Below, in pieces: positions 6,369-22,670 of a stretch of 64,000 bases of DNA; positions within the stretch are counted from its first letter, which is position 1; the number at the start of each line of letters is the position of its first letter. The notes beneath the pieces were generated by a model. The model was not told where the DNA came from, did not search any database, and saw only the letters and a list, made by a program, of their open reading frames with translations. A program made the translations under genes and the position numbers. Source of the DNA: an uncultured Candidatus Saccharibacteria bacterium (GTDB lineage Bacteria; Patescibacteriota; Minisyncoccia; CAIUEV01; JAHKAQ01); the NCBI GenBank assembly GCA_964598205.1, contig CAZRBB010000004.1:71156-135155 (forward strand). Direction: 5' to 3'.

Positions 6369-7448
6369 ATGAAAACCAAAAGAAATAAATTTTTATTTTT
6401 TGTATTCGCTCTTTTTTTTGTATTTTTTTTGACTGGAAAAAACTGTTTAGCACTGGTTGTTTCCCCAACAACAGTTGAGCTTACAGCCAATCCTGGACAG
6501 ATGATTGATTTTAATATTGAGATTCATAACGATAATTCAAAAGAAAGAGAGGAATTTATTACATCGATTCTGAATTTTAATGCCAAAGACAATGAAAATG
6601 GAGAACCAAAATTTTTTTCTGGGGATGATTTTCTAGGAGAAGATTTGGCTTCTGAGTGGTTGGAAATAGAGAGTGTTCCCTTGGTGGTAGAGCCAAGCGC
6701 TTGGCGGAAAATTCCTATAACAATCAAGATTCCCCAAAAGGTACAGCCCGGCGGTTATTATGTGGCAGTGTTTTTTGGACCAAAGAAAAATGAAGAAAAA
6801 AGCAAAGATAAAATTTCTAGCGTTTCTTATTACGCCGGATCGTTAGTATTGATCAATGTTTCTGGAGAGACGATTCAAGGAGGGGCGGTTAAGGAATTTT
6901 CTACAGAAGGCGGAAAAAAGTTTTTTCGTAACTTGCCAATAGGGTTTTTTACTCGAATAGAAAATTCTGGCAATCTTCATTTTCGTCCTGCCGGTAATGT
7001 GGAAATTAAAAATTTTTGGAACAAAAAAGTTGCCCAAATCCCAGTGATTAAATCTCAAACCGGGGGGAATATTCTGCCGGAAAGTATTCGTCGCTATAAT
7101 CTTAATTGGGAGAGCGCTTGTGGAGAGAAAGCAAACAAAAATTTTTTTAGTAGCGGATTTTTGGAGCGGGCAAACAGACAACGCCAAGAGTTTTATTTGG
7201 GTCGTTATGCCGCTGTTTTAACAGTAGTCCTACCCAACAAAGAAACGGGAACAGTGTCTATCTTTTTTTGGTTGATTCCAGCCGAGCTACTAACTGTGAT
7301 TTTGGTAGTGCTTATAATTTTGTGGGCACTAATTTATTGTTACAATCGCTGGATTGTTGGTTTTTTAAGGAGTCGCGTTAGGAAGGAACCAAAGAGAACT
7401 CCTATTAAAAGAAAAGAGAAAAAGCAAGATTATTTTTTGAGAAAATAG
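6369..7448 (+). CDS. Cell-surface protein with signal peptide and C-terminal TM anchor (DUF916/DUF3324-like architecture)
   Basis: 359 aa. N-terminal signal peptide, beta-rich ectodomain (VVSPTTVELTANPGQ...), a single C-terminal TM followed by a basic tail. Confidence 0.4.
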   Translation: MKTKRNKFLFFVFALFFVFFLTGKNCLALVVSPTTVELTANPGQMIDFNIEIHNDNSKEREEFITSILNFNAKDNENGEPKFFSGDDFLGEDLASEWLEIESVPLVVEPSAWRKIPITIKIPQKVQPGGYYVAVFFGPKKNEEKSKDKISSVSYYAGSLVLINVSGETIQGGAVKEFSTEGGKKFFRNLPIGFFTRIENSGNLHFRPAGNVEIKNFWNKKVAQIPVIKSQTGGNILPESIRRYNLNWESACGEKANKNFFSSGFLERANRQRQEFYLGRYAAVLTVVLPNKETGTVSIFFWLIPAELLTVILVVLIILWALIYCYNRWIVGFLRSRVRKEPKRTPIKRKEKKQDYFLRK

Positions 7449-7607: not shown

Positions 7608-10600
7608 GTGACAGTAAGAAAACAAAAAAAAGGTGGGATTAATGGTTTCCAACCCTTGGGGGTTTGGGGGCTTTTTATTGTTTTGGGAATCAGCTTGGTG
7701 ATGGTTTTTGGAGGGAATTCGGTTTGGGGAGCGGCGGAGGGGACGGAGGGGACGGAGATAACGGAGGGGACGGTCTGGGGTCGTTTTTGGAGTGGTGTTG
7801 ACCAAGGGGTAACGAGTTTTAAAGAAGGATTTTTAGCAACAACGAATAATCTAAAAAGCTATTTGGGAACAAGTGGACAGTTTATAGCTCGTTTTGGCAA
7901 GGAAAAAAACGAGAAAGAAGCCGAAGAATTGGCCAGCGTTATAGCTAGTCAAAAGATGGAAAAATGGTTGGAATGGTTTAGCAAGAACGGAGAAAGATTG
8001 GAGGAAATTGCTAACGGGGAAAATTTTAACAACCTGTATCTTTCTGGAGCAATAGATGGTCAGAATATTGCCAATAGAAGCTTGAATGGAAATCTTAAAA
8101 TAATTCCTGGATCCATTACCGGATTAGTAATTGCCAACGGTTCTGTTAGTAAAGAAGATATTCTTTGGCGGGGAATTACTTCTGTTAACTTACATGCCAA
8201 TGCGGTAACTACGAGAATTATTAAGGACGGAACTATTATCGGTGCCGATCTTTCAGATGATCTTAGTTTTTCTACTACGGGGACCATCCACGCTGACAAT
8301 ATTAATGGGAATCATTTAATAGTGAAAGATGGTTCAACGCTTTCTGGAGATACGGTTTTTAATGGGGGGGCTTTTTCCCATATGGGAACAACTTTTCTAG
8401 TCAACGAGACTGGAGATGCCACTTTTGATTCTGATGCGGTCACCACTTTTTCTGGGTCAAGATTGGAATTGGTAGCGGACGGTGGCGGGGTAACGATTAC
8501 TTATCCCGATGGTCAAACTTTTCAATTAAAAGATAGAACTACTCGAATTGAAACTTTAGCCAACGGTTCTTTGATTTTAGGAAATGATTCTGACGCTACT
8601 ACCGTGGACGGTTCGGTGATTAATCTTTCTGGGAATACCGTTATTAACGGGACCATTACTGGGAATATTACCGATAACGCTAGTAATGCTTTTGATTTAC
8701 AAGAAGGAACGAATAAGTATCTCAACATTTCTACTGTGGACGGTTCGGAAAAAATTGATTTTGGTAACACAACCCTTAATCCGAGCTATGAATTTTTAGG
8801 AACGGGAGCAACCACTTTGGGCGGTAATTTAACAGTGAATGGAGCGTTAATAGTTGGAGGAGGTACCGCGGTGGCTGGCCATTTTTTACCAGGCTCAAAC
8901 AATGTTTACAATCTGGGTAGTAATACTTACCGCTGGGCTAATCTGTATTTGGGTGGGGAAACATTACATTTAGGAGCTTCGATTACCGACGAAGCGGTTG
9001 TTAGTTATGACACAACTATCAATATTTTAAACATTGGTACTGATGCAACCACCAACGGCGACATTGCTTTTTTTAGTGATGATCTATACCTAGATAAGTC
9101 TAGCGGCAACGTTGGCATTGGGACAACGGACCCGGGGGCGAAGTTGGATGTTGCTGGTGTGGCAACTTTCCGGGGAAACTTGCTTTTTTCCACCGACAAT
9201 ACACTAGACATTGGAGCTAATGGCGCAACACGACCAAGAACAGGGTACTTTGGGACATCGGTAGTCGCACCTAATTTTACCGGCCTGGCTTCCAGCGCTA
9301 CTATTCTTGCCACTGCTCGCGATCTTTATGGCTTTAGTTTTAATGGTTCTGTTGGTACTGTATCGGGAATAAATATTATAGCTAGCAGTTATGGCGGAAC
9401 AGGCAATGGTTTTACGAAATTTACTGGACCGACCACAGCAGAAAAAACTTTTACATTGCCCGATGCCAATGCCATTATTGCCAGAACTGATGCTGGACAA
9501 ACTTTTACTGGAGTCAATATTTTTACTTCCCCAACCTTCACCACTAGCATTGTTCCGACCATAAACGATGGAACAACCATTGGAACAACCACTTTGCAAT
9601 TTTCCGATTTATTCCTCGCTTCGGGAGCAACTATTAACTATGCTAACGGTGATACAACTCTCACTCACTCAACCGGAATTTTGACATTGGGAACAGGAAC
9701 ACTGAAAATCACCACCCCTACCAACACCGCCACCAGCGTGGCGACGATTGACGGAATGCAGACTCTGACGAACAAGACATTGACTGCATCTAACAATACT
9801 TTAGGTGGAGTGACTATGACATTGGGAACTGATGCTACTGGTGATATATATTATCGCAATGTTTCTGGATATTTGACTAGATTAGGAATTGGAACTTCTA
9901 ATCAGATTCTCCATGGTGGAACTACTCCAAGTTATTCTGCTATTTCTCTGACTGGAGATATTACTGGAATTTTACCACTAGCCAATGGTGGCACCAATAA
10001 AAATATAACGGCTTCATCTGGAGCAATCATATTCTCTGATACTGATTCAATGGAACTTACTCTAGTTGGGTCTTCTGGGCAAATTTTGGTTTCTCAAGGA
10101 GCAGGTACGCCTATCTGGTCAACTCCCACCTATCCTTCTGCTTCCGGATCTGCCGGGAAAATTATTCGTTCCAATGGCGCTAACAATATCTATTCAACAG
10201 CCGCTTTTGCCGATACCTACACCGCCTCAAATCTTCTATATTCAAACGGCGACAACACCGTGCAGGGATTGGCTACGGCCAATAACGGCGTTCTCATTAC
10301 CGGTGTCACCGGTGTTCCTTCTATTTCTTCTACTATTCCAGTGGTTACACAACAAAATATTACCAATGTAAATTCAGCCTTGGTTACAGGACTTCTTCAA
10401 ATTACCACCACGACTGGCGCGCTCACGAGTGTTACCACTTCGGCTGGAATAGACGCTCTCATTTCCAACAATACCGGTTCGGGGCTTTTGGTTTTCAACG
10501 ACGGTCCGACTTTTATTGCCCCGACTCTCGGTGTGGCTACCGCCACTTCAATTAACGGACTTACGATCAATACCACCACCGGCACGCTAGCAATTTCCAA

Positions 10601-13600
10601 TTTAAAAACGCTCACCGCTTCCGATTCCACAACTCTTGCCACCAATGCGATTACTCTCGCTGGTGGGGAAGTCATAACTTTTTCACCAACTAACGCTTTG
10701 TCACTTTTGACGACTGGAGCAACAAGTGTGACTTTGCCAACATCTGGAACATTGATCAGTACCGACCAAACAGTGGGGCAAACTATTGGATTAACTGGAT
10801 CAAGATTAACAAAACTTTGGGCAACCAACATTGAATCAACCAATGCTCCGACAGTTTTAGGTTCAGCAGTTTATTATACTGGTGGTACGGATGTTTCTTT
10901 GGCTGATGGTGGTACCAACGCTTCCCTTACTGCCAATAATGGAGGAATTTTTTATTCCACGGGAACAGCTGGAGCAATTTTAGCAGGAACATCGACAGCC
11001 AATCAAATTTTGCTTTCTGGTTCATTAACAACACCAGTGTGGTCCACCGCCACCTATCCGGTTACGACGATGGCTAATCAATTATTATATTCTTCAGCGC
11101 TTAACACGGTTACTGGTCTAACTACTGCCAACAGTGGTGTTTTGGTTACCAACGCCACTGGAAATCCTTCTTTCTTGGGCTCTCTGACTAATGGACAATT
11201 AGTCGTTGGTTCTACTGGAGCCATTCCAGTTTTAGCCACTTTGACCGGTACAGATAATCAAATCGTGGTGACCAATGGCGCTGGCACAATTACTCTTTCC
11301 ACCTCTCAAAGTATTAATACCACTTCCACTCCGCAATTCGCTAGAATAGGCTTGGGGGTTTCCGCTGACACTACGAACATTCTCACTGCTACATCTGTTT
11401 CTACTACCGATCTTTCAAAGACGCTAAATATCTCTCATACTGGAGCCATCACTGGCACGGGATACGCCGGATACTTTTCCAAAACTGGAGCATCAACTAC
11501 TAATGTTGGGCTTTATACGATTGCCACTGGGGCAACTAATAACTATGCGTTGCAAATAGATTCTGCCGTAGCTGGAGCGAATAATTATACAATCTATGCT
11601 AATGGCACGGCACAAAGTTATTTTGCGGGCAACGTCGGCATCGGGACGACAGCCCCTTCTTCATTATTAAGTGTTGGCGGTGCAGGTTCCAGTTCTTATA
11701 GTATTTCTGGGATAGGTTCTCAAAGTGGAATTTATGGCTCTGCAAGTGCTGGTTATACTGGAGTGTATGGTCTTTCTACATCTGGTGCTGGTATCTCTGG
11801 CTCTTCCACGAGTGGAGTGGGTGGTTATTTTACTTCTTCTGTTGGTTACGCACTTATTACAGGAAACGGCAACGTCGGCATCGGGACGACGGCACCAGAA
11901 TCAAAACTGCATGTTTCAGCAGATGGTGCTGTTCAAATTTTCATGGGCGATCTTTATAGTGATCTATCATATAATACGCCAGAATTCTCAGGCAGGAGAG
12001 CCAGAGGAACTCAATCATTGCCATCCGCAGTATTGGCGGGTGATACGCTAATGCTTGTTGGGGCTAGAGGATATATGGATACTGGGGGGTTTAGCGCAAA
12101 TAAAGCCGTCATACACATGTATGCTGCGGAAAATTTCACTTCTACTACAAACGGAACTTATATCACTTTTTCAACAACACCTATCGGATCAACATCAAGA
12201 GCCGTAAGGATGACAATAGGGGATGCTGGCAACGTCGGCATCGGGACGACGAGTCCGGGGGCGAAGTTAAATATAAAAAGTAATAATGATGCTTCTGCTT
12301 TAAAACTTACATCATCTCTTGGTGGTACTATGATGGATCTTTACGAACTATCAGATGGAAGAATTCAATTCAATCTTTATGATGGGAGCGGAATTACCAA
12401 GGTACGATTAGATGGAAATGCAGATAATTACATAACCGGTGGCAACGTGGGAATCGGGACGACGGGACCTTCGGCCCTCTTGCATGTTGGATCCGGCGGT
12501 ACTCCCGGCTACGCAACTACGGGTGACGCTTATTTCCAAAATGATGTTGAAATTGACGGAACACTTTATACCGCAGGATTATCGGTACTTGGCAGCATTA
12601 TTCCTGCAACGGACGACACTTACGATCTTGGTTCATCGTCTTACCGCTGGAGAGATCTTTATCTTGGTCCAACATCATTACACCTAGTTTCAACGGTTGG
12701 GGAAACAACAACGGCCAGAGATTGGAAGTTGTCTATTCAGGAAACAGACGGCACAAGCGAAGGCAATTTGCGTATTATGGAAGGCGCAACGGAAATAATG
12801 AACATACAACCCGGCGGCAACGTCGGCATCGGGACGACGGGACCGGGGGCAAAACTGAATGTAGTAGGTGGTTCCGCTGGGACAAATACAGGTATTTTTA
12901 GAATCGAAAACAATACTAATGCTTCTGCTAACACAGGTGCATCAGTTGAGTTTTACAGTTACGATAACACGCCAGCTCAGGTAGAAATGGGACGAATTGG
13001 CACATTGGTAACAACTGGAACTGCCGGAGCGGCTTCATCTGATTTAGCTTTCTCGGCACGCAATAGTGGAACATTGACGGAATGGATGAGAATAAAAGGT
13101 AGCGGCAACGTCGGCATCGGGACGACGGGACCAGCGACAAAATTACAAATAGCTGGTACGGGTTCGACAAATGGACTTTCTTTTGGTGATGCGGCAGATG
13201 TGATTTTATATCGAAATTCAAGTACGCAACTTAGAATGAATAGTGATTTGCGGACAAGTGGTTCTAGCGGCTTGACTGTGGATGGGCCTGCTTTTTCTCT
13301 TGGTGGATTTAACACGCTTTATAACGCCGCAAGTGGTTTGCAATTTAAAGCGAATGCTACTTCGCAGATGCAACTATTTGCATCAGGTGGTTTAGCACTT
13401 GGTAGTACTTATTGGTCAACTGACCCAGGGGCAGGGAATTTAACAATACAAGGCAACGTCGGCATCGGGACGACGGCACCGGGGGCAGCCTTGGATGTGA
13501 TTGGAACAGGGATATTTCAATATGCGGCCTTGGAAAATGAAGGTGAATTTCTAAGAATATCGAGAACCTCTCAGACAACTCGATATAGTTCTTTATGGGC

Positions 13601-16600
13601 GAGACAGTCAGTTACAAAAGCGAATAATTATATTGGATTTAGAGTGTATGATGGTAATTCGACAGATTATGCTCCTGTAGAAATGATGAGAATAACAGGA
13701 AGTGGCAACGTCGGCATCGGGACGACGAATCCGACTGCGAAATTGGAAATAGGGGGAGATAATAATGGACTAAAAATATCTGGAGCAACATATGTTAGTG
13801 CTGAATTATTAGATGGTGGTAGCAATGATTCAGGGTACTTATCTCTTTATCGTGCTGGAGTTAAGGCTTTTTCTATTGGTGCTAATGACACATATTTCAA
13901 TTACGGCAACGTCGGCATCGGGACGACGGGACCGGCACAGAAACTGCATGTGTTCGGTGCGACGCCTCAAGTGGAAATTGACTCGTCATCTGGCACTAAC
14001 CCTTCATTGTTCTTAACAACGACAAATGACACGACTCAAGGAATAAAGTTTAGTTATGACCAAGGGGCTGGGGACGGGTATATTGATAATGTTTGGAACA
14101 ATGCTGCTGGAGATTTATTTTTTAGACTACGCACTCTCGGAACTCCAGTGGATGTCTTGTCGTTAAAAGCGAGCGGCAACGTCGGCATCGGGACGACGGC
14201 ACCGGTAAGCAAATTTCATCTATATGATAGCACGGGCTCCGGGTTAAGTATTGATACGGGAAATGGTTATGCGAATTTGTATTTCTTGGACGGTGGAGTT
14301 GAAAGATGGAGGTTTAGAAACGATGGTGCGACCGATGACTTTCACTTAATGGAAGATGCATCGGACATACGTCTTACTGTTCAAGAAGGCGGCAACGTCG
14401 GCATCGGGACGACGAGTCCACTGTCAAGTTTCTATGTAGGTAGTACTACTCCAACTAGTCTTTCCTACGCCCTTGGTAATTGGAACTCATACAAGGCAGC
14501 CATTGTAGATACATTCAATTATGCATCGGTTGATGATGAACATACTTCGTTTTTATCAGACCTGACCGTGAATTCGACCGTAAATAGTAGTGAACAGATG
14601 GCAGCGATTGCAGCATCAATAACAGTTAGTACGGCAAGTACGGCAGATACTGGGTCACTTAGGACTATATGGTCAAATTTGCAACATGATGGTACTGGAA
14701 CAGTTGCTGCCGCTCGGTTGTTTAATGGTGAGTTGGCAAATAAATCCACTGGCACAATGACTAAGGCGGATGGACTTGGTGTAGCTTTTAGAAATACAGG
14801 AGGGGGAATAATCAGTGATTTGAGAGGTGTTAACATTATTGACCTAGTAAACACTAGTGGGACAATCACTAATACATATGGGATATATACTGGCGACTTG
14901 TCATTAGGTACTCAAACGAATATGCCATTTTCTTTTTATGCCTCTGACTCTGATACATACAATTATTTTGCGGGCAACGTCGGCATCGGGACGACGGCAC
15001 CGGTAAGCAAATTTCATCTATATGATAGCACGGGCTCCGGGTTAAGTATTGATACGGGAAATGGTTATGCGAATTTGTATTTCTTGGACGGTGGAGTTGA
15101 AAGATGGAGGTTTAGAAACGATGGTGCGACCGATGACTTTCACTTAATGGAAGATGCATCGGACATACGTCTTACTGTTCAAGAAGGCGGCAACGTCGGC
15201 ATCGGGACGACTGGGCCATTGGTAAAGTTGCATATAACTACTGATGATGTTAATGGTAATGGCATACGAATTCAAAATGATAATGCTCTTGGCACTTGGA
15301 AATATGGAACGCTCGCTATGATGGGGCAAACTGGAAACAGCATTGTTGATTGGCCAAATGCTTTAGTAATTGAAGGTGCTGGCAATGGGGGAACTGTTAT
15401 TAGTAGTGCAGCAGGGGATATTAAATTTAATCCTGGTAGAATACAAGGAATGATAGTAAAGCAAACAACAGGCAACGTCGGCATTGGGACGACCGCGCCG
15501 GGATTTAGATTAGATGTTCCAGCGGTTTCTGCTAGCAACTATGATGTTGCAAAAATAGGCGGATTTGTAATTGCAAGAGCAGGGACTGATGTTAGTAATT
15601 TACTTATAACTGGTGCAAGTTGGGCTGGTGGAAGTACATTAACAGCTACCGCAACTACTTATGCCAGTTATCAACAAACTAGCGGAAATCATTATTTTTA
15701 TACTGCTACGGGACAAACCGTGGGAAATGCAGTTACTACTGTTATTCCAATGACAATAGTGGGTAATGGAGCAGTGGCCAATACTTTGTATCTAACTGCG
15801 GGCAACGTCGGCATCGGGACGACGAGTCCGACTCAAGCATTACAAATTACAGGAAGTCAATTTCAACAGCTGTCTTTACAAACAACTGGTGCTTATACAA
15901 CAAAAACTTACTTTGCGAATTATGCTGCAATAGGGAACTTGAACTCGTATTGGTCTATGAATAGAAATATTGGGACTGGTGTATTTGATAATATTGAACT
16001 GCCAGCGGCGGCAATCGCAATGAATGGCTCTACGGGAAATTCATCTATTCAATTTTATACTGCAGCCGCAAATAACACCGCACCATCTGTGCGTATGACA
16101 ATCGACAATAGTGGCAACGTCGGCATCGGGACGACGAGTCCGGGTGATAAGTTGAGTGTAGATGGCACAACTTATGGCACAACTATATCTGTCACAGGTA
16201 GAAGTGCATCATGGCCTGGCAATGCGACGGATTTGTCAAAACTTAATTTTAATGGATTAGTAGGTGCTTCTGGTGGAACACTGGCTTCTATAGCAACGAG
16301 GTTTGGGAATTCTGGTTCTGATTTTAGTAGCCAACTTCTTTTTTCAACAACTGACGCTTCCTTTGTTTTACAGGAAAGGATGAGAATCAATAACCTCGGC
16401 AACGTCGGCATCGGGACGACAGCACCGGGGGCATTATTGCACGTCGGACCAAACTCAGTTGTGTACCAACCAACCGTTGGAACTAAACAGCTAATTCTCT
16501 CTGGTGCTGGAAATACAAACGCAATTGATAATGGGACAATGATGATTTTTAGTGGTGGGTATAATTCAACGCTTGCACAAAATGCGACTTATGGTGCAAT

Positions 16601-18164
16601 TGCTGGTTTAAAAGAAAATGGGACCGACAATATTGCGTCTGGTTATTTAGGGTTTTACACCGGTCGTACTGGAGATGCCAATGCCTTGGAAAAAATGAGA
16701 ATTACAAGCACTGGCAACGTCGGCATCGGGACGACGGGACCGGTAGAGGCTTTGGATGTTTTGGGAAAAATAAAAGCAAGCAGTTCGGTTCAAGCAAATG
16801 GCGTAGCAATAGGTGGATTAAACGGCCTTTATTATAGTTCTTCCACAAGGGGTAAATATGGTTTTGGTTCTGTGACAGCGCTAGGAGCTTATCCACTCGA
16901 TTTATCTTCTGGTGATGTTACGACGTATACTGATGGATATATCAAATTCAGTACCGCCGGAACAGAAGCGATGCGAATTCAATCAAGTGGCAACGTCGGC
17001 ATCGGGACGACGGGACCAGGTGGTAGACTTCATATCGCAGATGGAATTACGGGCAATGACGCGACATATCGGGGAAAGTTAATTATTGAGAGCGGGCAAA
17101 CAGATAATGCCAGTAATGGATTGGAATTTAAAGCCAGCGCAGGGGCGAGCGGGTATGGTTATCGTTTGGCAACCGTTTATCCTACTTCTGGCATTGACCT
17201 TCGTTTTCAATCCAGACAAAATTCAGCTACTTGGTCTGATGTAATGACAATAAATACAGTCGGCAACGTCGGCATCGGGACGACGAATCCGGGGTATAAG
17301 TTGCAAGTTAGACCGGCTACTGATGTCAATCTTGGTTTTGGAAGTAATGCTGTTGGTGGTTTGCTAAATGTGGCTAATGATGCCGCATCAGTTGTTGATT
17401 TGACAACTAATGCGTGGGAATATCACTTTCAATCAAATGGAAACGAAAGGGTTACAATTCTCAACGGCGGCAACGTCGGCATCGGGACGACGGGGCCGGG
17501 GGCACGGTTAAATGTAGTTGATGTAAATTATGGATTTAATAATGTTGGAAATCTATTTATTCGCACTTCTGACGCACAGGCGGCAGACATTGGTGGAATG
17601 ATTGGACTGGGAGGTATTGGAAATGACGCAGGAACGGGAATTACTTCCTTTGCGACAATAGCAGGAAGAAAAGAAAATGGAACAACTTCAAATTACAGTG
17701 GATATTTGCAATTCTCAACATCTAATCCAGGAAGTACAAAGAATGAATGGATGCGAATCACAAGCACCGGCAACGTCGGCATCGGGACGACGGCACCCTC
17801 CCAAAAACTTCATGTTGAAGGTCACTGTCTTACCGGCGACACCCTAATCGCTGTTCGTCGTAAAAAAAGACGAAATTCTGAAAACGGAGAAAATGAAATT
17901 GACCCAGATGACCTAGACTTTTCTTTATCCGATTTTGCGTCTTCTAGCGATCAAGAAACAGAAGACTGTATCCTAGTACCAATTTGCAACATTCTCCCCG
18001 GAGACGAGGTTTTATCGCTCAATGAGGAGACAAATCGCACCGAGTATCACCCCATAAATGGCCTCCTAGACATGGGCATTCAAGAAATTTATCAAATTCG
18101 CACTAAGTCTGGACGGGTAATTCGGACTACCGGAAATCATCCGTATCTGGTAAAAATGAACTGA
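7608..18164 (+). CDS. Giant (3518 aa) tail-fibre-like repeat surface protein = N-extein fused to the N-terminal half of an intein
   Basis: N-terminal signal/TM anchor. Tail-fibre-type motifs (ILPLANGGTN...). About 23 modules each starting GNVGIGTT(A/S/G/N)P..KL.V. Last 112 aa are Hint N-terminal blocks A (CLTGDTLI) and B (TGNHPYL). Confidence 0.85.
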   Translation: MTVRKQKKGGINGFQPLGVWGLFIVLGISLVMVFGGNSVWGAAEGTEGTEITEGTVWGRFWSGVDQGVTSFKEGFLATTNNLKSYLGTSGQFIARFGKEKNEKEAEELASVIASQKMEKWLEWFSKNGERLEEIANGENFNNLYLSGAIDGQNIANRSLNGNLKIIPGSITGLVIANGSVSKEDILWRGITSVNLHANAVTTRIIKDGTIIGADLSDDLSFSTTGTIHADNINGNHLIVKDGSTLSGDTVFNGGAFSHMGTTFLVNETGDATFDSDAVTTFSGSRLELVADGGGVTITYPDGQTFQLKDRTTRIETLANGSLILGNDSDATTVDGSVINLSGNTVINGTITGNITDNASNAFDLQEGTNKYLNISTVDGSEKIDFGNTTLNPSYEFLGTGATTLGGNLTVNGALIVGGGTAVAGHFLPGSNNVYNLGSNTYRWANLYLGGETLHLGASITDEAVVSYDTTINILNIGTDATTNGDIAFFSDDLYLDKSSGNVGIGTTDPGAKLDVAGVATFRGNLLFSTDNTLDIGANGATRPRTGYFGTSVVAPNFTGLASSATILATARDLYGFSFNGSVGTVSGINIIASSYGGTGNGFTKFTGPTTAEKTFTLPDANAIIARTDAGQTFTGVNIFTSPTFTTSIVPTINDGTTIGTTTLQFSDLFLASGATINYANGDTTLTHSTGILTLGTGTLKITTPTNTATSVATIDGMQTLTNKTLTASNNTLGGVTMTLGTDATGDIYYRNVSGYLTRLGIGTSNQILHGGTTPSYSAISLTGDITGILPLANGGTNKNITASSGAIIFSDTDSMELTLVGSSGQILVSQGAGTPIWSTPTYPSASGSAGKIIRSNGANNIYSTAAFADTYTASNLLYSNGDNTVQGLATANNGVLITGVTGVPSISSTIPVVTQQNITNVNSALVTGLLQITTTTGALTSVTTSAGIDALISNNTGSGLLVFNDGPTFIAPTLGVATATSINGLTINTTTGTLAISNLKTLTASDSTTLATNAITLAGGEVITFSPTNALSLLTTGATSVTLPTSGTLISTDQTVGQTIGLTGSRLTKLWATNIESTNAPTVLGSAVYYTGGTDVSLADGGTNASLTANNGGIFYSTGTAGAILAGTSTANQILLSGSLTTPVWSTATYPVTTMANQLLYSSALNTVTGLTTANSGVLVTNATGNPSFLGSLTNGQLVVGSTGAIPVLATLTGTDNQIVVTNGAGTITLSTSQSINTTSTPQFARIGLGVSADTTNILTATSVSTTDLSKTLNISHTGAITGTGYAGYFSKTGASTTNVGLYTIATGATNNYALQIDSAVAGANNYTIYANGTAQSYFAGNVGIGTTAPSSLLSVGGAGSSSYSISGIGSQSGIYGSASAGYTGVYGLSTSGAGISGSSTSGVGGYFTSSVGYALITGNGNVGIGTTAPESKLHVSADGAVQIFMGDLYSDLSYNTPEFSGRRARGTQSLPSAVLAGDTLMLVGARGYMDTGGFSANKAVIHMYAAENFTSTTNGTYITFSTTPIGSTSRAVRMTIGDAGNVGIGTTSPGAKLNIKSNNDASALKLTSSLGGTMMDLYELSDGRIQFNLYDGSGITKVRLDGNADNYITGGNVGIGTTGPSALLHVGSGGTPGYATTGDAYFQNDVEIDGTLYTAGLSVLGSIIPATDDTYDLGSSSYRWRDLYLGPTSLHLVSTVGETTTARDWKLSIQETDGTSEGNLRIMEGATEIMNIQPGGNVGIGTTGPGAKLNVVGGSAGTNTGIFRIENNTNASANTGASVEFYSYDNTPAQVEMGRIGTLVTTGTAGAASSDLAFSARNSGTLTEWMRIKGSGNVGIGTTGPATKLQIAGTGSTNGLSFGDAADVILYRNSSTQLRMNSDLRTSGSSGLTVDGPAFSLGGFNTLYNAASGLQFKANATSQMQLFASGGLALGSTYWSTDPGAGNLTIQGNVGIGTTAPGAALDVIGTGIFQYAALENEGEFLRISRTSQTTRYSSLWARQSVTKANNYIGFRVYDGNSTDYAPVEMMRITGSGNVGIGTTNPTAKLEIGGDNNGLKISGATYVSAELLDGGSNDSGYLSLYRAGVKAFSIGANDTYFNYGNVGIGTTGPAQKLHVFGATPQVEIDSSSGTNPSLFLTTTNDTTQGIKFSYDQGAGDGYIDNVWNNAAGDLFFRLRTLGTPVDVLSLKASGNVGIGTTAPVSKFHLYDSTGSGLSIDTGNGYANLYFLDGGVERWRFRNDGATDDFHLMEDASDIRLTVQEGGNVGIGTTSPLSSFYVGSTTPTSLSYALGNWNSYKAAIVDTFNYASVDDEHTSFLSDLTVNSTVNSSEQMAAIAASITVSTASTADTGSLRTIWSNLQHDGTGTVAAARLFNGELANKSTGTMTKADGLGVAFRNTGGGIISDLRGVNIIDLVNTSGTITNTYGIYTGDLSLGTQTNMPFSFYASDSDTYNYFAGNVGIGTTAPVSKFHLYDSTGSGLSIDTGNGYANLYFLDGGVERWRFRNDGATDDFHLMEDASDIRLTVQEGGNVGIGTTGPLVKLHITTDDVNGNGIRIQNDNALGTWKYGTLAMMGQTGNSIVDWPNALVIEGAGNGGTVISSAAGDIKFNPGRIQGMIVKQTTGNVGIGTTAPGFRLDVPAVSASNYDVAKIGGFVIARAGTDVSNLLITGASWAGGSTLTATATTYASYQQTSGNHYFYTATGQTVGNAVTTVIPMTIVGNGAVANTLYLTAGNVGIGTTSPTQALQITGSQFQQLSLQTTGAYTTKTYFANYAAIGNLNSYWSMNRNIGTGVFDNIELPAAAIAMNGSTGNSSIQFYTAAANNTAPSVRMTIDNSGNVGIGTTSPGDKLSVDGTTYGTTISVTGRSASWPGNATDLSKLNFNGLVGASGGTLASIATRFGNSGSDFSSQLLFSTTDASFVLQERMRINNLGNVGIGTTAPGALLHVGPNSVVYQPTVGTKQLILSGAGNTNAIDNGTMMIFSGGYNSTLAQNATYGAIAGLKENGTDNIASGYLGFYTGRTGDANALEKMRITSTGNVGIGTTGPVEALDVLGKIKASSSVQANGVAIGGLNGLYYSSSTRGKYGFGSVTALGAYPLDLSSGDVTTYTDGYIKFSTAGTEAMRIQSSGNVGIGTTGPGGRLHIADGITGNDATYRGKLIIESGQTDNASNGLEFKASAGASGYGYRLATVYPTSGIDLRFQSRQNSATWSDVMTINTVGNVGIGTTNPGYKLQVRPATDVNLGFGSNAVGGLLNVANDAASVVDLTTNAWEYHFQSNGNERVTILNGGNVGIGTTGPGARLNVVDVNYGFNNVGNLFIRTSDAQAADIGGMIGLGGIGNDAGTGITSFATIAGRKENGTTSNYSGYLQFSTSNPGSTKNEWMRITSTGNVGIGTTAPSQKLHVEGHCLTGDTLIAVRRKKRRNSENGENEIDPDDLDFSLSDFASSSDQETEDCILVPICNILPGDEVLSLNEETNRTEYHPINGLLDMGIQEIYQIRTKSGRVIRTTGNHPYLVKMN
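17826..18161 (+). other. Split-intein N-terminal fragment (IntN, about 112 aa) at the C-terminus of the giant protein
   Basis: Cys1 in CLTGDTLIAV (block A). TGNHPYLV (block B, conserved T..H). Followed directly by a stop codon. No intein C-terminal blocks in this ORF. Confidence 0.8.
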
Positions 18165-18193
18165 ACTTAAAAATTTTTAACTAAGTTTTCTTT

Positions 18194-19753
18194 ATGTTTG
18201 GCGGTGGATTTTTGAAAAATTTTAGGGGCACTTGTATCACGCTTGCCAAACGAGTAGTCGATTTATTTCAAAGTCGTGATACCGAACCCTTGCCGATTCG
18301 TGATACGAAACCAGTCCTTAAAAAAATACGGAAAACCAAAAATTCCCAAAATTCGGTCAAAATTTTAGCCAAAGAAAAAATTCCCATGGGCGTGGAAATT
18401 TTAGAACCGGAACCTAGGCCCAATCTTTTGGAAATTTTTTGTCCGTATTGCTCTGGCAAAAATTTTGTAAAACGCGGTTTACGGCAAAAGAAAAAAGAAA
18501 AAGTTCAACTTTATCTTTGCCGTGATTGTCGGCGGTCGTTTACTCCCGGAGCGGTGAAAGGTCGGCATTATCCAATGGAGGTGATTCTTAACGCCATTAG
18601 TTTATATAACCTGGGGTACAGTTTGGAAAAGGCGGGAAAGATGGCATCTAAAATAGAGGGATTCAATAGGGAAGGAAAAAAAGAGCAGGGGGCGGGACTC
18701 AAAGGGACAAGGTTCCAGAGGGGACTGCTTACAACATCGGGCAACTTCGGGAGCGGGATGATCGGCAGCGGGACGGTGCTAAGTTGGGTGAACCGCTACC
18801 GTCATCTCTGTGCTTTTTCCCGAATGCGGGAATTTGCCATAAAAATGCTACCGCCGAATGAAATGATTTCTTCGGCTACCCTAGCGCATCGGCAACTCTA
18901 CCGATTCCGGCACCATCGTGCCAAAACAATCTTGATTATTAAAGAAGATTTTAAGAACAGTCCCTTTTGGCCATTAAAAGAATTTTTGGATTTAGTGCCG
19001 GTGGAATGTCCACATCAATATTTTCAAGAAGGTTTGCGGGCGTCAGAAGCGCCGCTTACTTTTTCCAAAACGGAAATGATTGTGCGGGGCAAAAATAATT
19101 TTGCCAACAAAATGGCTAAGTTTGCGCTAGAATCGGCCACTAAAGCCAAAGATCGCCACGATGTTTTACAGCGATTTATGTTGGCCAACGATTCGGTAAC
19201 AGTAGCTACAGAAGTGCCGATTTATCTTCGTCGGGAAGATTTAGCACACATGCAAACACAGTTGGGGTTTGAGCTGTATAAAAAGAGGATTCGTTCTAGA
19301 AAGAAGGAAGACAAGGCCCAAGGGGGGGCGAGGCCCAAGGGGGACTACTTACAACATCGGGCAACTTCGGGAGCGGGAAGATCGGGCAGCGGGACGGCAT
19401 TGGAACTTTTTCCCCTAGAAGAAATACCCAAATTAATTACCGGTCACATTGATTTTGTGCAGATTAGAAACGGAATGATCCATATTTTGGATTACAAGCC
19501 AAAAGCCGCCAAAGAAAGACCGATTGAACAATTAACCATTTACGCGTTGGCGCTTTCCCGCTTAACTGGCTTACGGGTGTATCATTTTAAGTGCGCTTGG
19601 TTCGACGAAAAAGATTATTTTGAATTTTTCCCACTGCATGTGGTTTCCAAGCCGGGAAAGAGGCGTTATCGGCGGAAAATTCGGACGATTGAAGGGACTT
19701 ATAAATTAAACGACGATCCGTTAAAGGTGGCGAATATTAAGGCTCAAGGCTAA
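18194..19753 (+). CDS. Putative free-standing homing-type nuclease: N-terminal C4 zinc ribbon (IS1/IS1595-transposase-like) plus C-terminal PD-(D/E)xK RecB/Cas4-family nuclease motifs
   Basis: CPYCSGKNF...x17...CRDCRRSF zinc ribbon. C-terminal GHIDFV (motif II), ILDYKPK (D/ExK), QLTIYALAL (QxxxY). Lies between the two intein halves. Contains out-of-frame 56-bp direct repeats and a G7 tract, so the ORF may be composite or decaying. Confidence 0.5.
   Translation: MFGGGFLKNFRGTCITLAKRVVDLFQSRDTEPLPIRDTKPVLKKIRKTKNSQNSVKILAKEKIPMGVEILEPEPRPNLLEIFCPYCSGKNFVKRGLRQKKKEKVQLYLCRDCRRSFTPGAVKGRHYPMEVILNAISLYNLGYSLEKAGKMASKIEGFNREGKKEQGAGLKGTRFQRGLLTTSGNFGSGMIGSGTVLSWVNRYRHLCAFSRMREFAIKMLPPNEMISSATLAHRQLYRFRHHRAKTILIIKEDFKNSPFWPLKEFLDLVPVECPHQYFQEGLRASEAPLTFSKTEMIVRGKNNFANKMAKFALESATKAKDRHDVLQRFMLANDSVTVATEVPIYLRREDLAHMQTQLGFELYKKRIRSRKKEDKAQGGARPKGDYLQHRATSGAGRSGSGTALELFPLEEIPKLITGHIDFVQIRNGMIHILDYKPKAAKERPIEQLTIYALALSRLTGLRVYHFKCAWFDEKDYFEFFPLHVVSKPGKRRYRRKIRTIEGTYKLNDDPLKVANIKAQG
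18721..18776. repeat. 56-bp direct repeat, copy 1 (inside the nuclease ORF)
   Basis: gggactgcttacaacatcgggcaacttcgggagcgggatgatcggcagcgggacgg. Near-identical copy at 19341-19397. The two copies are read in different frames, so the repeat is at DNA level. Confidence 0.8.
19341..19397. repeat. 56-bp direct repeat, copy 2 (one extra G), preceded by a G7 homopolymer at 19322-19328
   Basis: gggactacttacaacatcgggcaacttcgggagcgggaagatcgggcagcgggacgg. Confidence 0.8.
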
Positions 19754-19931
19754 ATTCAACCAACGCTTTTTTGATCTCCTCTTTTTTGGTAAAAAGATTA
19801 AAATCCAAAGATTGCCGGTGCCCAATGTGAAGAGCAATGGCGGTACCGCCAGCCAAACCAAAATCTCGGGAAAAATCACTAATTAATGGCAAGATTTTTA
19901 CTTGTTCGGAAGTTAAAATCTCAGTGTGCAT
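19737..19931 (-). pseudogene. N-terminal remnant of an AbiEii-family (DUF1814) nucleotidyltransferase toxin gene, truncated
   Basis: 64-aa ORF with LAGGTAIALHIGHRQSLDFNLF, resembling the AbiEii N-terminal GGTAL...R.S.DiDf motif. A stop follows and no downstream continuation exists in any frame of 60 aa or more. Overlaps the 3' end of the nuclease ORF. Confidence 0.35.
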
Positions 19932-20317
19932 GTTTGTTAAAATAAAGAGTGAAATAATTTTTTATTTCTGGTCGGTAATTGGTTCTTTTTTTTGATTTTT
20001 TGGTTTGGTTTTTAAAGATAGTCGCTATTTTTTGGAGGCCAACCACGGTCAAAAGTTTTTAAAAATCCTGCCAATCGCCGTAATTCAAAACGGTTTCTGT
20101 GATTGATTCAACAGACAAAACGGAAGGGTCTTTAACTGACCAAAAAAGCATTTTTCTTTGGACAGCAAATTGTTTCAGCTCTTTATCCATGATAGAATAA
20201 TAGCATATTTGGTTGGAAAAATCATTGGTTTGTGATTAAAGTTTTGTTTTTAATATCTTCTTAAATTATTTTGGTAATATTAAGTTAAGATTTTTGGTGA
20301 GGAGATGATAAAAATCA

Positions 20318-20767
20318 ATGTATCGCAATTATGTAAAAAGAGCGGTTAAGAATTTTACCGATTTAGATGTTTACCAAAAGCTTTTGGAAGGAAGTGTTTT
20401 TGTGGCAAAAGTGGTGGTGCCGGCTTTTTGGGAAAAACAAACGGAGACAAAAAAAGACAAAACGGCGGAGCTGATTATAGAAAAGCTAACAGTGCATACT
20501 CTTTATCTTCCAGAGCTGATTGCCAAGGCTCATTCTGTTCGTTTTGGAGCGGGGGAGCAATGTTTGGCATTTTTAGAAGAAGCAATGCTTGGCTGTAATT
20601 TAGCGGTGGTCTATTTGGAACAAACGCGGGATATTTGCGAAACTGGGTTAGAAACCGAACAATTTTCCGAACAGATTAAAAAATATTTTCAGGTAAGACA
20701 AAAAGTGTTAAACTTGCAAAGAGTTTGGAAGAAATTTATAGAAATCAAAAAACAAGAACAAAACTAA
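20318..20767 (+). CDS. Four-helix-bundle protein (TIGR02436 / 23S-rRNA-IVS-protein-like; Avd-like fold)
   Basis: 149 aa, all-helical. N-terminal FTDLDVYQK...resembles the F.DL.VWQKA signature of this family. Stop lies 4 nt before the IntC gene start. Confidence 0.4.
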   Translation: MYRNYVKRAVKNFTDLDVYQKLLEGSVFVAKVVVPAFWEKQTETKKDKTAELIIEKLTVHTLYLPELIAKAHSVRFGAGEQCLAFLEEAMLGCNLAVVYLEQTRDICETGLETEQFSEQIKKYFQVRQKVLNLQRVWKKFIEIKKQEQN

Positions 20768-20771
20768 AATT

Positions 20772-21059
20772 ATGTTTGGTTTTTTAAAGAAAGTTGCTAA
20801 AAAATGGCTCAAGGTTTCCCAGTTAAAAGTGGGAGCAAAAATTGCTGTGCCCAGAGCAGCGGCAATGGCTGGTTATGGTGGACTGGTTGCTAATGATTCC
20901 TTACTAGAAGAAGGCGAAGGGGATTATATGTGGGACGAAATTACCGAAATTAAAAAAGTTGGTCGAGAAAGAGTTTACGACATTGAAGTAGACGGAACGC
21001 ATAATTTTATTGCGGGGAATATTAATAATAAATTATTCGGCGGAATTTTTGCTCACAAC
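20772..21059 (+). other. IntC (C-terminal intein half; 96 aa from the first ATG, 44 aa if translation starts at 20928)
   Basis: Terminal His-Asn (AHN) followed by +1 Thr. Block F VYDIEVDGTHNFIA. Confidence 0.75.
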
Positions 21060-22670
21060 ACCTATGTCACCGGCAACGTCGGCATCGGGACGACGACACC
21101 GACCTACCGTCTTCAACTCCCCAATGTAGGCGATGCTACCGGGCAGGGCCAAGCCAATGCTTGGGTAGCATATTCAGATAGAAGTTTAAAAGAAGAGGTT
21201 GATCCAATCACTAATGCTCTAAACAATGTTCTTCTCTTACAAGGAGTAGACTTTACTTGGAAGGGTCAAGGAATTAGAAGCTCTGGCTTTATTGCTCAAG
21301 ATGTAGAAGAGGTTATTCCTAGTCTAGTATCCACAGACATTAACGGAATTAAGTCTTTAGACTATGGAAGATTTACTCCTTACCTAGTAGAAGCAATCAA
21401 AACCCAACAACTAAACATTACTACTAACACGAGCCGTCTTGATCTCCTAGATCAAAAGATAATGGAAGAGGCGAGTGGTTCTTTAATCCTTAATGCTACT
21501 GGCAATAGTATCCAAGCCAAAGATCTCTTAGACGCTACCTTACAAGGTGTAGCTACTAAAGTTAAATCCGGCACTATTTCCGACACTGACTTTATTTTAC
21601 CGATCAATGGTTTAATGGCAGTAGACTCAGCTAATGGAAGGGTCTATTTCCGTTACGACAATGATTGGCATTATGTTAATCAAACAGGAGGCTTTCAGAT
21701 TCCTAATTACGAAACCGCTCCGTACGAAAAGCTATCTCAAAACTCTAAGATTAAAGAAAATGAAGCTCTTCCTTTTGAATCAAGTAACTATCCTCACTAC
21801 ATAACAGAAAAGTTAACTCCCGGAGAGCTTCTGATTCCTTTTGTAGATGAATACCTTCCAGACGGAGCTGTCCATGGTCTGTATGCTAGATTCGAAGATG
21901 TTAAAGAAAAAATGTTTACTCAAGAAAAGAGCCAGTTAGTAGATCTAGCCCTTAAAACCGCAGAGAACATAGAAACTATTAAAGAGTTTAAAGAATCAGT
22001 AGATAAAAACCTAGCCGTAATTTCTTCTAACTTTGAATCATTAGATAACAACATTGACCGAAACGAAAAGAATGTTGAAAGCTTAGAAACCAGAACAGAA
22101 GCTACAGAAGCTAAAAATAATGATCTATCTTCCCGAGTTTCTGTCTTAGAGTTTTCTCTTTCTGAATCCCAACTAGCCGGAGAGCGCTTAGAGTTCCTTA
22201 CCCAAATCTTAAACCCAGCTGAAGACGGAAGCCTGACTATTTACAATGATCTGAATTTAGAAGGCAGATTGAGCGCCGAGGAAGTGGTGCTTAACAAGAT
22301 CACTATTAAGACCGATTCCGAAGAAACCCGCACGGTAGGGCAGGCGGTGATTGTTGGATTAGCTAAAGATGAAGATGCTGATGGCAAAGACGACAACACC
22401 GGAGCCGATGGTAAGAGCGTGATTATAAAAACCAGAATGGTTACGGAAAGTTCCAAGATTTTTTTAACCTTTGAAAACAATCCTCAATCATTGTATTGGG
22501 CAGAAAAAGTAACCAATGAATCTGGTGCTCTTATTGGTTTTAAGATTCTTCTAAACAGTCCGGCGTCGGCGGATATTAAAGTTTCTTGGTGGATTCTAGA
22601 AGAAGACGATCCGGCCAAGCAAACAACAAGCACTCCGGTCATTCCTTCTTCCCAATCAGAAGCACTTTAA
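20772..22670 (+). CDS. Split-intein C-terminal fragment (IntC) fused to C-extein: final GNVGIGTT repeat, peptidase-S74 intramolecular chaperone domain, coiled coil and C-terminal beta domain
   Basis: Blocks F/G: ERVYDIEVDGTHNFIAGN ... GIFAHN | T. The C-extein starts TYVTGNVGIGTTTP using the same 23-mer as the giant gene. SDRSLKEEV...GFIAQDVEEVIPSLV...LDYGRFTPYLVEAIKTQQ matches the S74 (CIMCD) consensus. Internal starts at M32 and M53 (20928) would give an IntC of 44 aa. Confidence 0.8.
   Translation: MFGFLKKVAKKWLKVSQLKVGAKIAVPRAAAMAGYGGLVANDSLLEEGEGDYMWDEITEIKKVGRERVYDIEVDGTHNFIAGNINNKLFGGIFAHNTYVTGNVGIGTTTPTYRLQLPNVGDATGQGQANAWVAYSDRSLKEEVDPITNALNNVLLLQGVDFTWKGQGIRSSGFIAQDVEEVIPSLVSTDINGIKSLDYGRFTPYLVEAIKTQQLNITTNTSRLDLLDQKIMEEASGSLILNATGNSIQAKDLLDATLQGVATKVKSGTISDTDFILPINGLMAVDSANGRVYFRYDNDWHYVNQTGGFQIPNYETAPYEKLSQNSKIKENEALPFESSNYPHYITEKLTPGELLIPFVDEYLPDGAVHGLYARFEDVKEKMFTQEKSQLVDLALKTAENIETIKEFKESVDKNLAVISSNFESLDNNIDRNEKNVESLETRTEATEAKNNDLSSRVSVLEFSLSESQLAGERLEFLTQILNPAEDGSLTIYNDLNLEGRLSAEEVVLNKITIKTDSEETRTVGQAVIVGLAKDEDADGKDDNTGADGKSVIIKTRMVTESSKIFLTFENNPQSLYWAEKVTNESGALIGFKILLNSPASADIKVSWWILEEDDPAKQTTSTPVIPSSQSEAL
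21174..21420 (+). other. Peptidase S74 / C-terminal intramolecular chaperone autoproteolytic domain
   Basis: YSDRSLKEEVDPITNALNNVLLLQGVDFTWK...SGFIAQDVEEVIPSLVSTDINGIKSLDYGRFTPYLVEAIKTQQLN. The Ser-Lys dyad motif SD(R/K)xLK is conserved. Confidence 0.8.

Follow-up and report, generated by a model that had tools for sequence, protein, structure and literature searches.

Fractured genes, in which a nuclease gene lies between the halves of a split intein, were reported by Dassa et al. (2009) from marine metagenomes, where 26 loci affecting DNA-metabolism enzymes and a phage terminase contained nucleases of the GIY-YIG or Vsr-like kind (PMC2677866). We analysed a 64,000 nt stretch of genomic DNA from an uncultured Candidatus Saccharibacteria bacterium (contig CAZRBB010000004.1, positions 71,156 to 135,155; hereafter, the window), in which a giant fibre gene breaks off within an intein N-terminal half (IntN) and is resumed after an intein C-terminal half (IntC) encoded about 2.6 kb downstream. 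This locus is very probably a fractured gene, namely a giant fibre gene with a class-1, DnaB-mini-intein-type intein that is interrupted by a mobile two-gene cassette. Like the published loci, it has the gene-in-pieces layout on one strand with a nuclease open reading frame (ORF) between IntN and IntC, and it shares with them complementary charges on the intein halves and the existence of related loci where genes are broken up or bordered by the same nuclease with no intein present (PMC2677866). In contrast, its host is a giant structural fibre protein in a cellular genome of the Candidate Phyla Radiation (CPR; Patescibacteria), its nuclease is an unrelated zinc-ribbon and RecB/Cas4-like PD-(D/E)xK protein that is always accompanied by a second protein, H149, and its break lies off the canonical endonuclease-insertion site.

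The locus encodes four polypeptides on one strand: N-extein-IntN (3518 aa), the nuclease (519 aa), H149 (149 aa), and IntC-C-extein (632 aa). The giant ORF (7608-18164) ends in ...TGNVGIGTTAPSQKLHVEGH|CLTGDTLIAV...IRTTGNHPYLVKMN followed by a stop, and ORF 20772-22670 begins with MFGFLKKVAKKWLKVSQLKVGAKIAVP...ERVYDIEVDGTHNFIAGNINNKLFGGIFAHN|TYVTGNVGIGTT, the end of IntC and the start of the C-extein reading VYDIEVDGTHNFIAGNINNKLFGGIFAHN|TYVTGNVGIGTT. An initial annotation, made from the letters of the window, had taken these ends for intein N-terminal blocks and for C-terminal blocks with a +1 Thr, respectively; its coordinates proved exact, and the profile search that it had proposed bore it out. 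IntN scored 34.8 bits with TIGR01445 intein_Nterm (cut-off, 24.5) and IntC scored 25.0 bits with TIGR01443 intein_Cterm (cut-off, 15.6), both being NCBIfam models with curated cut-offs. With the Pfam model Intein_splicing, both halves stayed below the threshold (29.3 and 29.5 bits versus 35.8). The intein is naturally split: IntN is terminated by a stop, IntC starts from its own ATG, and the 2.6 kb separating them contain two genes.

The residues required of a class-1 intein were all present. Block A opens with Cys1 (CLTGDTLI; codon 17826-17828), and Cys occupied position 1 in all family members whose alignment extends there. The T-x-x-H signature of block B was found in TTGNHPYL, which aligned to block B of the DnaB mini-inteins and was near-invariant across the family (TT.NHPYL). 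Blocks F and G read VYDIEVDGTHNF...GIFAHN|T, with the Asn codon ending at 21059 and Thr+1 at 21060, and AHN|T was found in all complete family members. The catalytic set of Cys1, T-x-x-H, block F Asp/His, terminal His-Asn, and Thr+1 was conserved in approximately 40 family members, and the stretches conserved throughout the family were C1, TGDT, GDEVLSLNE, TT.NHPYL, W.KVS.L..G..IAVP, VYDIEVEGTHNF, and AHN|T. About 12% of inteins have the Cys1/Thr+1 combination (PMC11766414). The closest solved relatives of both halves were DnaB mini-inteins (1MI8, 4O1R, and 6FRG, including Npu and Ssp DnaB). A BIL-type or pretoxin HINT domain, which the initial annotation had named as a possible refutation, was not supported: PT-HINT reached 20 bits (cut-off, 27.7), a poorer match than those to the intein models, and Thr+1 is conserved. 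As with BIL domains in variable surface proteins, a HINT-type domain is found here within a repetitive, variable, non-enzymatic surface protein; unlike them, it matched intein models, its +1 nucleophile was strictly conserved, and it was associated with a nuclease gene.

Table 1. Features of the fractured fibre locus (positions in the window).
Feature	Position	Strand	Evidence
N-extein, giant fibre protein, 3406 aa	7608..17825	+	ORF list; in-frame 23-mers
Upstream flanking 23-mer, ending 34 nt before the intein insertion point	17769..17791	+	Repeat analysis
Intein N-half (IntN), 112 aa and TGA stop	17826..18164	+	TIGR01445; DnaB mini-intein alignment
Free-standing nuclease, 519 aa	18194..19753	+	PF12705; zinc ribbon; invariant residues
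GC-rich insertion in nuclease ORF, copy 1, read ...TTSGNFGSGMIGSGT	18715..18776	+	Repeat; degenerate relative of the fibre 23-mer
GC-rich insertion in nuclease ORF, copy 2, different frame, read ...ATSGAGRSGSGT	19335..19397	+	Repeat, 92% identical to copy 1
Decayed gene remnant: AbiEii-toxin N-terminus and DUF6922-like piece, stop-broken	19737..20190	-	Translations; profile matches
Helper protein H149, 149 aa	20318..20767	+	AlphaFold2 four-helix bundle; Foldseek; follows nuclease
Intein C-half (IntC), 96 aa	20772..21059	+	TIGR01443; Ssp DnaB mini-intein alignment
C-extein, 536 aa, Thr+1 then TYVTGNVGIGTT	21060..22670	+	S74 domain; collinear with P0203
Downstream flanking 23-mer, 12 nt past the intein insertion point	21072..21094	+	Repeat analysis

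We examined whether the two exteins belong together. Their predicted splice product has 3406 + 536 = 3942 residues with the junction ...KLHVEGH-TYVTGNVGIGTT..., and a degenerate DNA pattern for this junction retrieved four metagenome contigs (L237-L240) in which an uninterrupted ...GNVGIGTT.P.QKLHVEGN-TYISGNVGIGTT... lies inside a fibre ORF. These four contigs indicate that the double motif, two GNVGIGTT 16 residues apart, is a natural sequence and an intein insertion site. In addition, the nearest intein-free homologue, P0203, was collinear with the whole C-extein from its GNVGIGTT onward (37% identity), and 254 fibre residues precede the C-extein-equivalent start within the same P0203 ORF. 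A close intein-free allele of this very gene was not found, P0203 being the nearest uninterrupted C-extein homologue. The insertion site recurred as KLHVEGx|TYxxGNVGIGTT. Thus, gene order and host continuity (the empty sites and P0203) are those of a fractured gene; the initial annotation's reading of the locus as a fractured gene with a split intein is supported by the intein models, conservation, recurrence, empty junctions, and the collinear P0203.

The fibre itself is modular and of a cell-surface or tail-fibre-like kind. The N-extein consists of modules that each open with GNVGIGTT, and 23 copies of the underlying 23-mer were found in it, all in frame; no Pfam domain other than the intein was detected in this part. 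It had been noted at the outset that a 23-mer used about 20 times upstream resumes after IntC, and we counted 23 copies in the giant ORF, 20 of them exact and 3 near, plus a single exact one after IntC. The protein had also been described as ending in an S74 chaperone domain. Peptidase_S74, an intramolecular-chaperone domain, is indeed present at aa 135-186 of ORF 20772-22670 (nt 21174-21329; Pfam, E 1.3e-13), starting 39 residues past the junction, but it is not the end of the protein, being followed by a 446-aa tail that ends in ...VSWWILEED....

Misassembly of the 2.6 kb insert was excluded, since the same gene order was present in four independent assemblies, three from the Joint Genome Institute (JGI; samples 3300044991, 3300044984, and 3300045131) and a Logan assembly of SRR12261224. 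A programmed frameshift from IntN into the nuclease was also rejected: the nuclease and the giant ORF are read in different frames, and that of the nuclease is closed by a stop codon at 18182-18184, beyond the stop of the giant ORF. Over the 3.5 kb region 17700-21200, Rfam returned no RNA element or self-splicing intron at E<=1, and scans for promoters and terminators gave site numbers that were not above those of shuffled sequence.

Purifying selection was detected on IntN, IntC, the nuclease, and H149, with nonsynonymous rates (dN) of 0.25-0.5 between relatives of 46-68% protein identity; as the synonymous rate (dS) was saturated in nearly all comparisons, strong purifying selection is concluded only qualitatively, and dN/dS was 0.15-0.16 in the two comparisons where it could be computed. 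This result bears on the possibility that the element landed in a once-contiguous intein and killed the fibre gene, leaving a pseudogene or two independent proteins whose intein pieces at most cleave or hold the fragments together, with no ligation. Natural trans-splicing is not known for an intein broken at this atypical site, the decayed AbiEii fragment in the cassette means that some junk accumulates, and the fibre gene is probably non-essential. Against this stand the selection on both intein halves, the retention of every intein catalytic residue, and the long, intact extein ORFs, neither of which contains a stop or frameshift. Moreover, the same split has been maintained in dozens of divergent species, and IntC is translationally coupled to H149: its ATG is only 4 nt beyond the H149 stop, and the same two ORFs overlap in loci L003 and L012. 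We therefore regard a dead fibre gene as quite improbable.

For the fractured gene, the charges of the two halves suggest how the intein could be rebuilt. IntN comprises Cys1, a basic RRKKRR stretch, a 32-aa acidic insert, and block B with TGNH, whereas IntC comprises a basic N-terminus, an N4-like strand WLKVSQLKVGAKIAVP, a closed mini-intein linker, block F, and block G. The net charge of IntN is -8, carried by the acidic insert, versus +8 for the first 30 aa of IntC; complementary charges have also been described for earlier split inteins (PMC2677866). In the proposed mechanism, acidic IntN and the basic N-terminus of IntC would associate and rebuild the HINT fold, after which Cys1, Thr+1, and the terminal Asn would carry out protein trans-splicing to give the 3942-aa fibre. 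Within IntN, aa 10-48 (17853-17968) hold a basic run after block A that is conserved in the family (PIRRRKKRKK; here RRKKRR) and then the acidic insert, which is variable; both are missing from the DnaB mini-inteins.

The position of the break was determined by aligning both halves with the Ssp DnaB mini-intein (1MI8). IntN residues 61-108 aligned to chain residues 31-78, and IntC residues 11-84 to chain residues 82-152 (E 8.8e-7). The aligned part of IntC covers the N4 strand and the mini-intein linker, its N4-like strand being equivalent to WKRLDELSLKEHIALP of Ssp DnaB. IntN ends directly after block B, its last position corresponding to Ssp DnaB G80, so that the break is equivalent to G80|W81. 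IntC has a short closed linker where Ssp DnaB carried its endonuclease. The Ssp DnaB mini-intein construct joins L106|S107, which we take to be the canonical endonuclease-insertion site and the seat of canonical splits. Judging from the alignment, the gene break lies approximately 26 residues upstream of that site; a break at the canonical site is typical of split inteins but not strictly required.

The break also sets this intein apart from the described ones. Canonical split inteins (cyanobacterial DnaE and gp41-1) and the atypical AceL-TerL and GOS-TerL inteins have separately encoded halves, Cys1, and electrostatic complementarity, as here. However, the present 112-aa IntN ends after block B, the 96-aa IntC holds the N4-like strand and the linker, and the halves are linked in one operon and not dispersed; the IntN of the atypical TerL split inteins has 25-30 residues (PMC11766414). 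Contiguous inteins with nested endonucleases likewise combine a HINT domain with a mobility nuclease. Their nucleases are of the LAGLIDADG or HNH type (PMC2677866) and reportedly occupy one highly conserved insertion site (PMC6801210). In contrast, the nuclease studied here is of the PD-(D/E)xK type, is encoded between the halves with its own stop codon, and is located at a different site.

Contiguous inteins of the same family carried additional material at precisely this point. One fibre gene (L004 1-5901) contains three such inteins with low-complexity linkers of approximately 190-250 aa, and the intein on IMG/VR contig 3300025317_000141 (L115) has an in-frame insert of approximately 235 aa. 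All of this extra material lies between NHPYL.. and W.KV..L, a non-canonical point, and the inteins concerned occupy sites equivalent to that in the window. The point between block B and the N4 strand appears to be the cargo site of this intein family.

The nuclease consists of a C4 zinc ribbon (C83, C86, C109, and C112), a strongly conserved helical middle region that lacks known relatives, and a C-terminal PD-(D/E)xK core. It scored 23.1 bits with PF12705 PDDEXK_1 (cut-off, 22), and all 28 aligned family members matched this model (28/28; best E 1.7e-8). The core residues D420, D433-Y-K435, and E445/Q446, as well as the four zinc-ribbon cysteines, were invariant in the family. On this evidence, the nuclease looks active. 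The initial annotation had correctly assigned it to the PD-(D/E)xK type, but had contrasted it with LAGLIDADG or HNH nucleases, whereas those of the published fractured genes are GIY-YIG or Vsr-like; Vsr has a restriction-enzyme/PD-(D/E)xK-type fold (PMC2677866). Only PF12705 and the zinc ribbon were matched by the present protein, with no sign of a GIY-YIG or Vsr-like domain. More than 3243 homologues remained after clustering at 90%. A defence system was considered and rejected, as PADLOC gave only a partial Cas4-like match to the nuclease core and none to H149.

The zinc ribbon, which resembles the InsA/IS1 and TFIIS/Rpb9 ribbons, raises the alternative that the 519-aa protein is the transposase of an IS1/IS1595-type element that transposed into the intein. 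It scored 27.8 bits with the IS1/IS1595 zinc-binding domain model (cut-off, 28), several homologues are labelled "transposase-like protein" by JGI, and copies are often found at contig ends and are multi-copy in one metagenome-assembled genome (MAG). Nevertheless, profile searches detected no DDE or other transposase catalytic domain, the PD-(D/E)xK core being the sole catalytic module; apart from AT-rich low-complexity inverted repeats, there were no convincing terminal inverted repeats or target-site duplications; and the cassette was never found in random contexts, but always in one orientation, in or after fibre genes. We consider a transposase highly improbable.

The second cassette gene encodes H149, for which AlphaFold2 predicted four helices (predicted local distance difference test score, pLDDT, 90.8). 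Foldseek matched this model to 2RLD of the S23/23S-rRNA-IVS family (probability 1.0; TM 0.72 normalised to the target) and to Avd of a diversity-generating retroelement (DGR; 8UBE_D, probability 0.99), with 8UB7 Avd chains also among the best meaningful matches. The model is an up-down four-helix bundle of the 2RLD/Avd-like fold, and H149 is accordingly modelled as an Avd/23S-rRNA-IVS-like four-helix bundle. The sequence of H149 from the window matched nothing in Pfam at E<=1, so the PF05635 threshold was not reached, whereas 6 of 39 relatives matched PF05635 weakly (best E 4.3e-4). H149 shares the N-terminal F.DL.VYQ motif with the Avd/IVP family (PF05635), and some cassette loci carry bona fide PF05635 genes beside the nuclease; unlike Avd, however, its partner is a nuclease, without a reverse transcriptase or template repeat. 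As neither of the latter was found among the ORFs between the intein halves, a DGR was rejected despite the Avd-like fold. H149 may act as a helper of the nuclease. The spacer between the two genes is unusually long in the window (564 nt), which can be explained by the decayed minus-strand AbiEii/DUF6922-like remnants that fill it. The AbiEii piece (N-terminal 64 aa) matched with E 8e-4 and 19.8 bits, below the 22.5 cut-off, and the DUF6922 piece with E 0.077.

To place the cassette in context, 80 loci from species-representative genomes were collected and then searched with profiles built from the four parts of the window, and the counts given below are over 81 distinct Patescibacteria loci. 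Relatives of the mobile genes belonged to Patescibacteria in all cases bearing a name. The order IntN-nuclease-H149-IntC occurred in approximately 35 of the 81 loci, including Moranii-, Uhr-, Gottesman-, Yanofsky-, and Kaiserbacteria, WWE3, and others, and many of these split loci had the same junction as the window (...GNVGIGTT.P..KLHVEG[QSHN]|C[VLM]TGDT... and ...AHN|TY..GN[VL]GIG...). In five loci (L003, L012, L021, L022, and L075; proteins P0023 and P0034), IntN was fused in frame to the nuclease, as in inteins with nested endonucleases; the intein is still split in these loci, since the nuclease ends in a stop and H149 intervenes. The remaining cassette copies, approximately 46 of 81, were free-standing: they came directly downstream of the stop codon of a GNVGIG fibre gene lacking an intein, in some cases with Bro-N, PF05635, or small genes in between. 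In every fetched locus with a continuing contig, an H149 homologue came after the nuclease on the same strand. Bona fide 23S_rRNA_IVP (PF05635) and Bro-N genes lie between the fibre end and the nuclease at L007/L008 4676-5899 and L013 9153-9974, and in these free-standing loci a DUF3800 gene follows the cassette. After the free-standing cassette of L004, there is a 115-aa ORF (7695-8042) whose start (DLKFDWWIVQTEPVEIT...) corresponds to the very C-terminal end of other fibre proteins; this ORF may derive from a fibre 3' end that the cassette displaced, either carrying it along or cutting it off.

In a neighbour-joining tree of the nuclease, the intein-embedded and free-standing contexts were interleaved many times, and the window nuclease was nearer to free-standing copies (72-77% identity) than to other intein-embedded ones (66-71%). 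One MAG contained three paralogous copies of approximately 91% identity on three contigs. Because the two contexts interleave on the tree, the nuclease-H149 pair appears from its phylogeny to be a mobile cassette that switches between them. This pattern fits the evolutionary model of Dassa et al., as expected of a free-standing homing-endonuclease gene (PMC2677866). The free-standing homing endonucleases of phages, which mediate intronless homing, offer a further parallel: about half of the cassettes are intergenic after a fibre gene, and their distribution is patchy and multi-copy. Such phage nuclease genes are found at boundaries of genetic exchange (PMC10448857); the present cassettes differ in residing in cellular CPR genomes and in being two-gene units.

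From context switching on the tree, the paralogues in one MAG, and the existing empty sites, all of which are indirect, we infer homing. The cassette would act like a free-standing homing-endonuclease gene and would be copied into cassette-less fibre genes by break repair. One resting place would be the interior of the intein, harmless because the host protein would be restored by trans-splicing; the other would lie immediately beyond a fibre gene's 3' end.

Several observations weigh against this interpretation of the locus. To our knowledge, no natural split intein with a break at a position equivalent to G80|W81 has been described. The AlphaFold2 model of the nuclease was poor (28 sequences, pLDDT 52), so its fold rests on sequence profiles, and a PDB profile search returned zinc-ribbon matches only. 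The matches of H149 to Avd/IVP had weak E-values of 0.1-0.2. A recent transfer of the window copy was not detectable, as the nearest nucleases are 66-77% identical. Finally, contig L240 contains an empty KLHVEGN-TYISGN site (348-386) about 1.4 kb upstream of a free-standing nuclease homologue (1812-3008), and, given this coexistence, the simple assumption of cleavage at the empty intein site by the nuclease is not supported. Two more nuclease C-terminal fragments lie downstream on L240 (3536-3730 and 4820-5080), and an H149 homologue was not detected on this contig.

The 23-mer GGCAACGTCGGCATCGGGACGAC, which encodes GNVGIGTT, was found 24 times in the window (9105-21094) versus 0 expected. It was exact in 21 of the 24 copies, despite a G+C content at third codon positions (GC3) of 0.35 in the gene and unrelated flanks. 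The intein element is flanked by an exact in-frame 28-nt direct repeat that includes the 23-mer; the downstream partner lies at 21068-21095, and the spacing is 3303 nt, or 1101 codons. Among loci selected by the nuclease (species GC 36-59%), 62-63% of the GNVGIGT motifs were identical at all seven synonymous sites (185/293 and 165/266). In contrast, the exact 23-mer occurred in 0 of 23 motifs in phage loci chosen by S74 similarity alone, where most copies differed at 5-8 positions and codons drifted. This identity at synonymous sites, which extends over phylum-level distances, points to DNA-level selection or constraint, or to intense recombination or gene conversion, in CPR surface-fibre genes. 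The exact 23-mer was also present in more than 120 IMG/VR viral contigs that had no nuclease in the stretch examined, and a strict tie between 23-mer and cassette was therefore rejected.

Traces of recombination were found at the 23-mers. The giant gene contains a single long duplication (239 nt with 100% identity; 14175-14413 and 14973-15211), which is bounded exactly by two 23-mers and has unrelated flanks; this suggests module exchange via recombination at these sequences. Across loci, 10 of 128 high-identity blocks had both ends on 23-mers, compared with approximately 0.4 expected, although this test is biased, as alignments tend to run through any conserved 23-mer. Sequences resembling the 23-mer were 5-10 times enriched within the nuclease and H149 genes. 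Variable loops of both proteins, and of some inteins as well, carried degenerate copies with the consensus ...GGCAGCGGGACG (GSGT for GIGT). Of 120 nuclease homologues, 32 had insertions encoding ..S(G/D)N(V/I/F)G(S/T/I)GT.. in such loops, as did part of the H149 genes and of the inteins. In the window, the two GC-rich copies of a 62-nt repeat listed in Table 1 sit in variable loops of the nuclease family alignment, copy 2 in the second of them. The differing reading frames of the degenerate copies indicate that they are insertions at the DNA level.

These findings bring up an alternative in which the nuclease-H149 pair is a domesticated recombination system for fibre genes, either in place of or in addition to being a selfish homing element. 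Its site of action would be the 23-mer or its vicinity, where exchange, duplication, and deletion of modules would diversify the fibre, and the split intein would be one landing place among others. The frequent use of the identical 23-mer at nuclease-selected loci and its absence from the S74-selected phage loci, the duplication and block ends on 23-mers, the direct repeat around the intein element, and the enrichment of 23-mer-like sequences in both cassette genes are in line with it. So are the invariable location of the cassette within or right after a GNVGIG fibre gene on the same strand and the resemblance of H149 to Avd, the accessory protein of diversity-generating retroelements. On the other hand, the 23-mer-bearing viral contigs without a nuclease and the bias of the block-end test count against it, and a host that carries 24 cleavable sites and stays intact would have to control the nuclease tightly. 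Overall, we regard domestication as unlikely, keeping in mind that homing and recombination-promoting roles are not mutually exclusive. The broader proposition, that the 23-mer is a DNA-level recombination signal across Patescibacteria and some viruses, on which the nuclease and its Avd-like partner act to shuffle fibre cassettes, is improbable to a similar degree; if true, it would amount to a DNA-break-based counterpart of diversity-generating retroelements, in which the split intein lets the system sit in its own target gene.

As a fractured gene, the locus extends an arrangement so far seen in a few dozen metagenome loci, mostly viral and affecting DNA-metabolism enzymes, to CPR cells and to a giant structural protein. 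The giant-fibre host, the cellular CPR lineage, a nuclease family with an obligate Avd-like partner, the break or cargo site in the HINT fold, and the abundance are new; the arrangement is frequent, with dozens of species in our sample and thousands of nuclease homologues. Full-text literature searches returned no paper on inteins of this kind in CPR bacteria and nothing relevant on the GNVGIGT motif. With a natural split site located between block B and the N4 strand, this family departs from the canonical as well as the TerL-type atypical position; if active, such inteins would provide new protein-ligation tools and a test of why endonucleases occupy a single intein site. The zinc-ribbon PD-(D/E)xK nuclease and its Avd-like helper define an abundant, uncharacterised two-gene mobile unit, which may place part of the four-helix-bundle IVP family in a functional context for the first time.

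The surroundings of the locus are those of a cellular genome. An AcrB/HlyD efflux pair lies upstream, and the str operon (S12, S7, EF-G, and EF-Tu), further ribosomal protein genes, and a tRNA-Leu gene lie downstream. Directly upstream of the giant gene, a 359-aa ORF (6369-7448) gave weak matches to WxL-interacting peptidoglycan-binding and Fn3-like domains (E 0.004-0.016), and its product may be a cell-surface partner of the fibre.

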